NCBI GenBank assembly: GCA_017502465.1
Contig: JAFVUY010000119.1
Coordinates: 31,583 to 95,582, forward strand
DNA length: 64,000 nucleotides
Source of the DNA: Bacilli bacterium
GTDB lineage: Bacteria; Bacillota_I; Bacilli_A; RFN20; CAG-826
Direction of reading: 5' to 3'
Each line of letters opens with the position of its first letter. Within the stretch, counting starts at the first letter, position 1. Both the position numbers and the translations under genes were made by a program. Shown here in pieces: positions 46,200 through 47,128 of this stretch. Below the pieces are notes generated by a model that was given only the letters and a program-made list of their open reading frames with translations, ran no database searches and was not told where the DNA came from.

Positions 46200-47128
46200 T
46201 GGAGCGAGTGATGGGAGTCGAACCCACGTTGTCTGCTTGTGGTGATTCATATAAGATTTGCACTTATATCTTTTCCCAGTCCTCATCTGTTAATTGTTTA
46301 ATATCCTTTTTTCTAAAAGGTAAATTATTTACTTTACACCATTTAGAAACAGCTTTATCAGAAACACCATATTGTTTTCCAATTTCAATAAAACTTTTTA
46401 CTCTAATCATTTGCTTTAATTCTTCACGATTAGGTCTTAAACTTACTTGTTGATTTTTAGCAGAACAATTTTTACATCGAACCGCACTTTTGGATATTTC
46501 AATTCCACAATCAATACAATAATGATATTTTTTAGATAAATCTTTTACTTCTCGCAAAGGATAAATCTCATTTGGAATTGTATGGTAATCTCCTCTGTTT
46601 ATATAATAAACTGTGCTTAAATCTAATTTATATTTGGAAGCGATTTCTTTAAAAGATAATATATTTTCTTTTAAATCATTTACAATATTCATAAATGTTA
46701 GTGAATCATAATGATAAAAAATTTCAACTTTTTCAGGAGAATTTAAAACAACATTATAGCCATTTGGAACTAAGCTATTATATTTTAAAATATATTCTCC
46801 TTCTAAAGAATCTAATTCTTCAATATTACAAATCTCTAAAATTTGAAAAGAAAAATTTTCTTTCCCATATTTTTGAATTGCTTTCCCAATTAAACTAGAA
46901 CTTGATTTAGCAGAATGTTCCTACCATCTTCGTTCTATATGAATAGATTGCCCTATATAAACTTTACCATTTTTAAGATTTTCAATTTTATAAATACCTA
47001 TTGACATTTTATCGCCTCCATATATTTATAAAAATCAAACTCTTATCATTAACAGAAACGGACCAGAAATGTTTTTCATTAAACTAATGAACCGAAGGCA
47101 GAAGTAATAGCCGTTATACCACACCCGC
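46200..47128 (-). tRNA. tRNA gene interrupted by a ~0.87-kb insertion carrying a GIY-YIG endonuclease gene; anticodon unresolved (possibly UAC or UCG)
   Basis: 3' part (46200-46262): ..gcagacaacGUGGGUUCGACUCCCAUcactcgcUCCA. 5' part (about 47095-47128): GCGGGUG-U-GGUAUAACGGCUAUUAC-UUCUGCCUU. The acceptor strands gcgggug/cactcgc pair 7 of 7 (one G-U). The anticodon stem ucugc/gcaga pairs 5 of 5. No G immediately precedes the inferred 3' exon, so the exact splice junction is unclear. Confidence 0.4.
46261..47007 (-). CDS. GIY-YIG homing endonuclease with a C-terminal zinc-finger/HTH DNA-binding region; one in-frame TAG
   Basis: MSIGIYKIENLKNGKVYIGQSIHIERRW-TAG-EHSAKS... then ..CIDCGIEISKSAVRCKNC.. 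and ..IGKQYGVSDKAVSKWCK.. Confidence 0.65.

Follow-up and report, generated by a model that had tools for sequence, protein, structure and literature searches.

How can a tRNA gene be of use to a phage when an insert of 854 nucleotides (nt) splits its anticodon? The question is raised by positions 46200-47128, minus strand, of a 64,000-nt stretch of contig JAFVUY010000119.1, which we refer to as the window. The interval is the phage's only tRNA-Gly(UCC) gene, interrupted by an 854-nt mobile insert, and the insert carries a GIY-YIG homing endonuclease gene within an RNA scaffold that itself resembles a tRNA. Sequences are given below as minus-strand RNA.

The two ends of the interval belong to a single tRNA gene. 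When introns are allowed ARAGORN reports exactly c[46200,47128] with an 854-nt insert, and when they are not it makes no tRNA call at 46200-47128. Exon 1, tRNA positions 1-35 (47094-47128, minus strand; ARAGORN -i and homologue alignment), reads GCGGGUG-UG-GUAU...UUAC-U-UCUGC-CUUC from 47128 to 47094 and provides the acceptor strand, U8 and G9, the D-arm, the strand UCUGC and C32, U33, U34 and C35. It shares 94-97% identity with the 5' half of the tRNA-Gly that stands without an insert in the related loci L004/L007 and in Bacillus phage G, where the gene is annotated as tRNA-Gly(tcc). Exon 2, positions 36-76 (46200-46239, minus strand; sequence and homologue alignment), reads CAA-GCAGA-CAAC-GUGGG-UUCGACU-CCCAU-CACUCGC-U-CCA from 46239 to 46200, that is, C36, A37 and A38, GCAGA, a 4-nt variable loop, the T-arm, the acceptor strand CACUCGC, U73 and CCA. 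The original prediction had recognised GCGGGUG, a D-arm and UCUGC in the 5' half and the matching GCAGA in the 3' half, as we do; it had also called the acceptor strands perfect complements, and here six Watson-Crick pairs stand while the match is not perfect, G4.U69 completing the stem. The T-arm that it found in common with exon 2 of the neighbouring tRNA-Leu is the 17-mer GTGGGTTCGACTCCCAT, which occurs exactly twice in the window (46211-46227 and 47231-47247; 0 copies expected by chance), the second copy belonging to the 3' half of that tRNA-Leu. The 3' piece of the tRNA-Gly gene is nevertheless not a stray duplicate of tRNA-Leu: it pairs with the 5' half and is contiguous with it in uninterrupted homologues.

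Those homologues settle the identity of the gene. We retrieved 80 related loci through the neighbouring DUF2828 gene (a DUF2828/DUF7788 protein gene lies at 44152-45708, minus strand). The two exons are contiguous, as one uninterrupted tRNA, in L004, L005, L006 and L075, with 93% identity over 75/75 nt, and the joined exons are 89% identical to the tRNA-Gly of L007 and to the annotated tRNA-Gly(tcc) of Bacillus phage G. Synteny is kept both upstream and downstream in the relatives, which have tRNA-Gly(UCC) at the same position. Comparison with homologous phages that lack the insertion thus places the halves in the same gene and not in different ones, as had been proposed from the sequence. The uninterrupted homologues give the anticodon loop as CUUC/CAA and the anticodon as UCC, with the insert between C35 and C36; the insert has G as its first nucleotide and A as its last, so that this junction can be placed in only one way. 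The anticodons first suggested, UAC or UCG, must be replaced by UCC; the same comparison rules out Arg(UCG), which is ARAGORN's default label, and a valine reading with UAC or CAC. Removal of the insert in silico yields tRNA-Gly(tcc) at default ARAGORN stringency. The glycine identity set of bacteria, defined by work in E. coli, consists of G1-C72, C2-G71, G3-C70, U73, C35 and C36; all of these lie in the exons. No other tRNA-Gly was found in the tRNA cluster by ARAGORN with or without introns. Three further metagenome assemblies, made independently, contain the 2.1-kb region with 100% identity, which excludes an assembly artefact or chimera. Samples in which the phage occurs include ENA ERZ28653940, ERZ27256864 and ERZ28654893, and SRR12529277. 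An exact-junction search of IMG/VR gave no match, and when the window's exon sequence was sought in an allele free of the insert, the only find was L215, an unrelated phage tRNA-Gly.

What, then, is the insert? It occupies 46240-47093 (minus strand; placed at C35/C36 by alignment with uninterrupted homologues) and is a tRNA-like RNA scaffold, made up of a terminal stem of 7 bp, a hairpin like a D-arm, a T-arm and a final ACCA, together with a GIY-YIG open reading frame (ORF). The 5' terminal strand GGUUCAU (47087-47093) pairs 7/7 with the 3' terminal strand AUGAAUC (46244-46250), both being defined by structural scan and covariation. A UA corresponding to tRNA nucleotides 8-9 precedes the D-arm-like hairpin GUUU-AAUGAA-AAAC (47071-47084; structural scan), whose stem covaries by inspection (GCUU/AAGC in L175, GAAU/AUUC in L061, GUGU/GCAC in L023). 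The T-arm-like hairpin AUAAG-UGCAAAU-CUUAU (46251-46267; scan and motif search) has a 5-bp stem and a 7-nt loop with U first and A fifth, as in a T-loop, and its motif was found in all close members of the family described below and in some free-standing phage tRNAs. The ACCA tail (46240-46243; strict scan and N-CCA enrichment) abuts outer exon 2. The layout is that of a tRNA, namely acceptor stem, U8-N9, D-arm, T-arm, discriminator and CCA, with about 780 nt that include the ORF in place of the anticodon arm, and the insert by itself is called as a tRNA-like gene, [1,854], when the ARAGORN threshold is relaxed. Its non-coding part amounts to about 110 nt, 86 before the ORF and 25 after it. 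Between the outer Gly exons and these non-coding ends there is no complementarity of at least 6 nt; no terminator-like site was found on the minus strand inside the gene, and promoter-like sites number 17 against 11 +/- 3.2, near noise.

The cargo is a gene for a GIY-YIG homing endonuclease of 247 amino acids (46264-47007, minus strand; Pfam, NCBIfam). Its domain matches Pfam PF01541 at 2.5e-11 and the NCBIfam model TIGR01453, 'group I intron endonuclease', at 4.4e-21 (75.9 bits against a cutoff of 56), as expected from the earlier placing of a GIY-YIG gene between the halves. The label 'HEG-interrupted' tRNA, where HEG stands for homing endonuclease gene, was accordingly right about the gene and left undefined the nature of the insert, with its tRNA-like, CCA-terminated scaffold. 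The ORF has a GGAGG Shine-Dalgarno sequence at 47019-47015, and its stop codon TAA (46266-46264) falls inside the T-arm-like stem. One in-frame TAG (46923-46921) lies within the catalytic motif (RRW-TAG-EH); a suppressor tRNA with a CUA anticodon is encoded in the same cluster (48936-49010, minus strand), many ORFs contain in-frame TAG, and the orthologue in L175 has seven. The suppressor tRNA and the in-frame TAGs together indicate that TAG is a sense codon for this phage. According to a proposal of Borges et al., recoded stops postpone endonuclease production to late infection. At the C-terminus of the protein there is a weak HTH_28 match below cutoff and, by eye, a zinc-finger-like CxxC...CxxC motif; a protein of HNH type in L061 shares this module, with 50% identity over 88 amino acids. 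By acting on DNA, the endonuclease would carry the element into tRNA-Gly genes that lack it. The nearest relatives of its catalytic domain are neighbours of tRNA genes; the one in L086, for example, lies 85 nt downstream from tRNA-Gly(tcc). GIY-YIG relatives were also followed as a lead to more interrupted tRNAs, and all were free-standing, none lying inside a tRNA. Only one of 56 GIY-YIG homologues from other contexts has a tRNA-like frame, in a match that looks like chance, so the frame is specific to the position inside a tRNA.

The insert is not an isolated case. A T-arm motif search in IMG/VR, one metagenome pattern scan and a structural scanner applied to all loci brought together about 12 distinct members, whose outer tRNAs are Gly, Lys, Glu, Gln, Ile, Asp and Tyr. 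We give for each the terminal strands and the tail. In tRNA-Gly, the window's insert (35/36, 854 nt, GGUUCAU/AUGAAUC + ACCA, GIY-YIG) is joined at the same site by the 88-nt insert of L207 and L208 (GUUUUAU/AUAAAAC + ACCA), which has no ORF and retains a remnant of the last codons, NEDWIKI*, and at 34/35 by the 857-nt insert of L175, L209 and L210 (GUUUCAU/AUGAAGC + ACCA), with a GIY-YIG protein 57% identical to the window's over 247/247 amino acids. Four inserts lie in tRNA-Lys: at 35/36 those of L061 (737 nt, GGUAGAA/UUUUACC + ACCA), whose protein has an HNH-type N-terminus and the same C-terminal DNA-binding half, L165 (67 nt, GGUUGUU/AACAACU + ACCA, no cargo) and L183 (62 nt, GGUUGUU/AACAAUC + U, no CCA and no cargo), and at 34/35 that of L048 (112 nt, GGUGGAA/UUCCGCC + UCCA, no cargo). 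The tRNA-Glu inserts, all at 36/37, comprise one with a full HNH-like ORF in L179 (3' strand AUCUAAC + ACCA, the 5' end not being defined) and two with ORF remnants and the strands GUUAGAU/AUCUAAC + ACCA, of 132 nt in L163 and of 95 nt in L164, L186 and L193. Cargo is absent from the inserts in tRNA-Ile(UAU) of L023 (36/37, 71 nt, UAUGGCG/CGCCAUA + GCCA) and L078 (34/35, 49 nt, GGUAGAU/AUUUACC + ACCA), and a PDDEXK_5 protein is encoded by those at 35/36 of tRNA-Asp in L050 (476 nt, GUAAGAA/UUCUUAC + ACCA) and of tRNA-Tyr in L067 (444 nt, GUUAAAU/AUUUAAC + UCCA).

A second member lies in the window itself, at 35/36 of tRNA-Gln(UUG): the outer gene spans 50747-50880 and its 59-nt insert 50788-50846 (minus strand; CUAAGAU/AUCUUAG + ACCA, no cargo). 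The insert has the T-arm GUGAG-UGCAAUU-CUCAU, and the interrupted gene as a whole receives 55 bits from the Rfam tRNA model. This tRNA-Gln(UUG) is the phage's only one. The sequence UUACCACUUGG in the insert is a perfect 11-nt complement of CCAAGUGGUAA in the outer D-arm, and this pairing dominates the predicted minimum-free-energy fold.

Taken together these inserts are well supported as a structural family of tRNA-like inserts in phage tRNAs. In a strict scan the insert had to show full pairing in the T-stem (5/5) and in the terminal stem (7/7), a T-loop of 7 nt and an N+CCA tail, and the outer gene an anticodon stem paired 5/5 with at least two G:C pairs, Y32, U33, R37 and loop pieces in the two exons totalling 7 nt. 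The scan returned 15 matches in 2.3 Mb, one of them (L035) false, and 18 control triplets in place of CCA gave 0-5 matches, with a mean of about 1.2. A looser scan, with an unrestricted T-loop and a loose outer stem, was set aside as too noisy (111 matches against 15-77 in controls). In an alignment of 11 members all seven terminal-stem pairs vary on both sides and the cells are 100% paired, against 42-49% when the strands are slid; none of 500 shuffles reaches the observed covariation score. Default ARAGORN finds a normal tRNA of the expected identity in 15/16 cases when the inserts are removed at the family boundaries, and the ORF-less inserts of 49-132 nt keep the scaffold ends and intact outer cloverleaves. 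The cargo comes from three unrelated nuclease families (GIY-YIG, PD-(D/E)XK and HNH-like) or is absent, and the RNA frame is constant.

Some observations count against this description of the scaffold. Five of the 11 rows used for covariation were chosen by a rule that requires pairing, the other six being also fully paired. Thermodynamic folding of isolated inserts, which are AT-rich, recovers the terminal stem in 3/5 cases with weak z-scores of 0 to -3, and L183 is a single member that lacks CCA.

The unusual T-arm AUAAG-UGCAANU-CUUAU, with G at T-loop position 2, is also present at L167, L178, L197, L190, L206, L202 and L170, in free-standing phage tRNAs, mostly with a CAU anticodon, and in a free-standing 51-nt mini tRNA-like element of L170, GUGAGAA...UUCUCAC-ACCA. 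Such tRNAs and the mini-element may be the source of the scaffold.

A homing endonuclease gene in a tRNA anticodon loop brings to mind the self-splicing group I introns, such as that of T4 td with I-TevI, that of Synechocystis tRNA-fMet with I-Ssp6803I and those of Patescibacteria, and the present inserts share with these the anticodon loop, including the site 35/36, the families of cargo (the GIY-YIG I-TevI subfamily and, in the sister elements, PDDEXK_5) and presumably homing at the DNA level. The endonuclease passes the cutoff of the NCBIfam 'group I intron endonuclease' subfamily, and group I introns at 35/36 of Patescibacteria tRNAs have been shown to self-splice (PMC13011429). The hallmarks of the class are nevertheless missing from the insert in the window. 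Exon 1 ends in C35 and not in U; the insert ends ...CACCA and not in G, the nearest upstream G being 10 nt from the junction. The original prediction had remarked that no G precedes the 3' exon, and the ending ...AUGAAUC-ACCA bears this out as a feature that is real and informative. About 200 nt is the length of the smallest group I ribozymes known, and the 86 + 25 nt of non-coding sequence here, like the 49-132 nt of the ORF-less homologues, leave no room for a ribozyme core; what is conserved is a tRNA-like frame and no P1-P9 core. We therefore think it very improbable that the insert is a classical group I intron with a GIY-YIG gene.

The neighbouring tRNA-Leu(UAA) (47220-48082, minus strand), which has a long variable arm and is mislabelled as Phe by ARAGORN, provides a direct comparison. 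Its insert of about 778 nt is group-I-like, with an HNH ORF (47347-47859), a structured 5' RNA of about 220 nt, a P7-like 'agacua...uaguc' and splice sites that fit group I (U34/...G/A35); the versions in relatives, with or without an ORF, are 337-896 nt long. The Rfam group I model matches neither this insert nor its relatives. Silence of Rfam was consequently dropped as evidence against a group I intron in tRNA-Gly, where a missing match is uninformative: the model also missed a control, the ORF-less tRNA-Leu(UAA) intron of L052, which has the group-I-like splice sites U34/...G/A35 and P7-like motifs.

If the insert does not splice itself, is the outer tRNA still in use? In L165 and L183 the ORF-less inserts occupy one and the same site of tRNA-Lys and can be aligned with each other; between the two outer genes there are compensatory changes at four pairs (3:70, 4:69, 5:68 and 27:43) and changes in loops, with no disruptive change, and the tRNA-Gly genes of the window and L004 show a compensatory change at pair 5:68. 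The cargo proteins of the window and L175 have diverged to the extent given above, yet ORF, scaffold and exons are intact in both. Since an anticodon split at 35/36 cannot decode, the insert must leave the RNA if the tRNA is used, and the compensatory changes in the outer tRNAs suggest that it is probably removed at the RNA level. The alternative is a dead tRNA gene, in which a cassette occupies a dispensable tRNA-Gly and the tRNA-like ends serve the cassette itself, for example by allowing RNase P to release a stable endonuclease mRNA. Homing endonuclease genes can occupy non-essential DNA, and relatives of this one stand free beside tRNAs; the tRNA-like frame, in contrast, is absent from the free-standing homologues. 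The interrupted gene is the only tRNA-Gly of its cluster and relatives retain tRNA-Gly(UCC) at this position. ORF-less remnants that keep scaffold ends and perfect outer cloverleaves would not be expected in a dead gene and argue for a functional outer tRNA, as do tRNA-Lys genes that share an ORF-less insert and differ solely in compensatory pairs and loops. We consider a dead gene unlikely.

Our preferred reading, to which we give an even chance, is that the insert is a non-self-splicing intron that would be excised from the precursor RNA by protein enzymes, with the endonuclease providing homing at the DNA level. The insert begins exactly where a mature 5' end of the inner mimic would lie and stops exactly at its 3' CCA. 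In a tRNA, the coaxial stack of 7 + 5 bp, the T-loop and the NCCA are what RNase P and RNase Z recognise, and the inner mimic would be handled like the other tRNAs of the polycistronic cluster. RNase P would cut just 5' of the inner G1, between C35 and the insert, leaving a 3'-OH on exon 1, and an RNase Z-type or similar endonuclease would cut after the CCA, leaving a 5'-phosphate on C36; in L183, with no CCA, the 3' cut would follow the discriminator. The outer acceptor and anticodon stems would hold the halves together while an ATP-dependent RNA ligase joined them. The resulting tRNA-Gly would carry the junction ...CUUC/CAAGCAGA..., and the spliced 32-mer TATTACTTCTGCCTTCCAAGCAGACAACGTGG would be specific to this phage.

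A candidate for the resealing enzyme is encoded at 22234-23712 (minus strand), a probable ATP-dependent RNA ligase of the DRB0094/Rnl5-like type (TIGR02306 at 1.2e-12, below the equivalog cutoff) that may reseal the anticodon loop. The minus strand from 12495 to 29416 holds a dense set of RNA-repair and tRNA-maintenance genes that encode PIN-PhoH (12495-13739), an adjoining metallophosphoesterase (17538-18152) and AAA_33 P-loop kinase (18149-18655), a YqeY-like protein (21159-21614), an RlaP nucleotidyltransferase (26948-27748) and a Thg1-like 3'-5' polymerase (28523-29416). A free-standing HNH endonuclease gene (HNH_3, 2e-8; 23709-24353, minus strand) adjoins the probable ligase gene.

Several points weigh against excision and against this route to it. 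There is an ascertainment effect, in that ARAGORN reports only interrupted genes with intact exons, so that decayed examples of dead genes would be invisible, and the compensatory pairs of the outer tRNAs might be older than the insertions, if these were independent events; insertions may also have been repeated and recent. The 3' cut is the weakest step of the proposal: CCA normally inhibits RNase Z in well-studied bacteria, the Thermotoga RNase Z and E. coli RNase BN being exceptions, and no homologue of RNase Z, EndA or RtcB was found among the roughly 20 window ORFs scanned. The ligase assignment is based on sub-threshold matches, which include Pfam PHA02142 OB-fold at 3e-5, RNA_ligase at 3e-4, a weak Protein Data Bank match to the Naegleria RNA ligase (E about 0.05) and, by eye, a 'KMHG' that resembles ligase motif I; moreover, Rnl5-type ligases favour nicks in duplexes over loops. 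The set of repair genes also exceeds what a route through 3'-OH and 5'-phosphate ends needs.

This last point leads to a serious rival to the RNase P route, and one that we hold to be unlikely. Some other endonuclease or a new small self-cleaving motif would cut at both junctions and produce ends with 2',3'-cyclic phosphate and 5'-OH, to be healed by the kinase and the phosphoesterase and then sealed by the ligase. The logic is that of archaeal and eukaryal tRNA splicing or of anticodon-loop repair in T4, and the AAA_33 kinase with its metallophosphoesterase, RlaP, the Thg1-like protein, PIN-PhoH and the probable ligase would suit it. The junction offers no bulge-helix-bulge of the archaeal and eukaryal kind, which would consist of a 3-nt bulge, a 4-bp helix and a 3-nt bulge and which we looked for and rejected; it forms a 4 x 7-nt internal loop between helices of 5 and 7 bp. 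Rfam gave no match to a known self-cleaving ribozyme family in the window or in the mini-insert loci, and healing of cyclic-phosphate ends would leave the mature-tRNA-like 5' end and the NCCA 3' end of the insert unexplained.

One might also ask whether the inner tRNA-like RNA is functional in itself, perhaps as a decoy that draws off anticodon nucleases of the host or other defences directed at tRNAs, with the outer halves as a mere landing site. Conservation of the scaffold with covariation even where there is no ORF, the free-standing 51-nt copy in L170 and the heavy investment of the phage in tRNA repair would all fit a decoy. It would not account for the precise placement in the anticodon loop, for exon loops that sum to 7 nt or for intact outer tRNAs, and the inner elements lack the anticodon arm that is the usual target of such nucleases; we regard this explanation as improbable.

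Excision by proteins has parallels in part with systems that are already known. Archaeal and eukaryal tRNA introns and split tRNAs, processed by EndA and RtcB, follow the same logic of cutting by a protein and joining of exons by a ligase; in the present case the proposed recognition element is a mimic of the top half of a tRNA in place of a bulge-helix-bulge, and the ends would be 3'-OH and 5'-phosphate if RNase P and RNase Z act. In tRNA punctuation, as it operates in mitochondrial transcripts and in engineered arrays of tRNA and guide RNA, RNase P and RNase Z free an RNA that is flanked by tRNAs, and T4, with Pnkp and Rnl1, illustrates the repair by phage ligases of tRNAs that have been broken in their anticodon loops. 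The proposed route would combine the two, and we know of no description of punctuation and anticodon-loop repair together as a splicing pathway for an interrupted tRNA. The insert also resembles transfer-messenger RNA (tmRNA), whose 5' end is matured by RNase P, in that a tRNA-like domain with acceptor stem, T-arm and 3' CCA frames an internal coding region. It differs in lacking pseudoknots, in carrying a normal 247-amino-acid gene with a Shine-Dalgarno sequence and in being embedded in another tRNA; it is not a member of that class, for the tmRNA covariance model has no match on the insert and scores only 12 bits on the outer T-arm. Free-standing GIY-YIG genes of the T4 SegB type in phage tRNA clusters lie beside or between tRNAs and have no tRNA-like frame.

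The closest precedent is the set of 'enigmatic introns' that Devoto et al. described in 2019 in the tRNAs of Lak megaphages (PMC6784885), one of which 'itself may encode a tRNA'; Table S6 of that paper lists them in Gly(TCC), Thr, Phe and Tyr with 'no hit in rfam'. Like the present inserts they lie in the anticodon loops of tRNAs, tRNA-Gly(TCC) included, of TAG-recoded gut phages, no mechanism having been proposed, and they contain a tRNA-like unit, with a 7-8-bp terminal stem and a T-arm, whose 3' strand adjoins exon 2. They differ in being 79-114 nt long without an ORF, in the small hairpin and A-rich spacer that separate the unit from exon 1, in their canonical T-loop UUCGAAU and in the 1-3 nt, with no NCCA, that follow the 3' strand. 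In the window's insert the mimic spans the whole element from its first nucleotide, ends in ACCA, has a UGCAANU loop and holds a 247-amino-acid homing-endonuclease ORF. The Lak introns are a further difficulty for the proposed route and have been one point in favour of the heal-and-seal rival: about 26 extra nt lie between exon 1 and the inner unit, a simple RNase P cut would leave them in place, and the route does not obviously extend to these introns for that reason. We found nothing in the literature on a removal mechanism or a 'nested tRNA' beyond the 2019 paper, and no mechanistic follow-up. The insert is a new, endonuclease-bearing and CCA-terminated variant of this barely described kind of phage tRNA intron.

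Other genes of the window are interrupted in other ways. At 49396-49952 and 58217-58763 (both minus strand) lie interrupted tRNAs, probably a tRNA-Ser(UGA) whose variable arm is long and a tRNA-Asp(GUC). Their inserts of 477 and 470 nt consist almost wholly of PDDEXK_5 (I-Ssp6803I-family) ORFs, and their ends are of a hairpin type without NCCA that in relatives follows the pattern xUCAA-AC-helix...helix-CA-UUGAx with compensatory changes; they are probably a third class of insert, with no room for a ribozyme. ARAGORN also reports a putative tRNA-Tyr with a 39-nt insert (50448-50573, minus strand), which the Rfam tRNA model does not match, and a tRNA with a four-base anticodon, aaag (53373-53446, minus strand), which scores 55 bits with the Rfam tRNA model and may have an 8-nt anticodon loop. 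The tRNA cluster contains in addition a full-length ROOL RNA (56681-57355, minus strand; 305 bits) and a drum RNA (51543-51652, minus strand; 79 bits), and two weak matches to YrlA (Y RNA-like) lie near it (49044-49107 and 58844-58956, both minus strand). A second GIY-YIG gene is found at 6916-7629 (minus strand; Pfam 5e-9 on the first 40 amino acids), flanked by ORFs at 7793-9307 and 6363-6761 that by eye look like the N- and C-terminal parts of a GyrB/topoisomerase II-like protein; the arrangement suggests that 6363-9307 (minus strand) is another endonuclease-bearing insertion, in a protein-coding gene.

Protein-dependent tRNA splicing is regarded as a trait of archaea and eukaryotes. To our knowledge, self-splicing group I introns are the only tRNA introns of bacteria and their viruses whose mechanism of removal is known, and removal by tRNA-trimming enzymes and an RNA ligase has not been described for bacteria or phages. 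The full form of our proposal, which we offer as possible and hold with less than even confidence, is a third kind of tRNA splicing in phages of this group, dependent neither on self-splicing nor on a bulge-helix-bulge, in which the mimic would be excised by the cell's usual enzymes of tRNA end maturation, through RNase P and an RNase Z-like cut, a phage ligase would rejoin the exons and three families of homing endonuclease would ride on the same scaffold. It is pure speculation that the mature-like ends reflect an origin at the RNA level, although they would also fit the ligation of a processed tRNA-like RNA into a tRNA cut by an anticodon nuclease. The locus and its roughly 12 relatives give a testable architecture to the 'enigmatic' phage tRNA introns of 2019. 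If the proposal is true, housekeeping enzymes would constitute a new splicing pathway that explains how homing endonucleases can colonise tRNA genes in the absence of a ribozyme, and the RNA ligases and repair enzymes of phages would gain a role besides that of countering host anticodon nucleases. Standard tRNA finders miss such interrupted genes; in this phage they hide the only tRNA-Gly and the only tRNA-Gln, and the tRNA repertoires of recoded phages are consequently undercounted.

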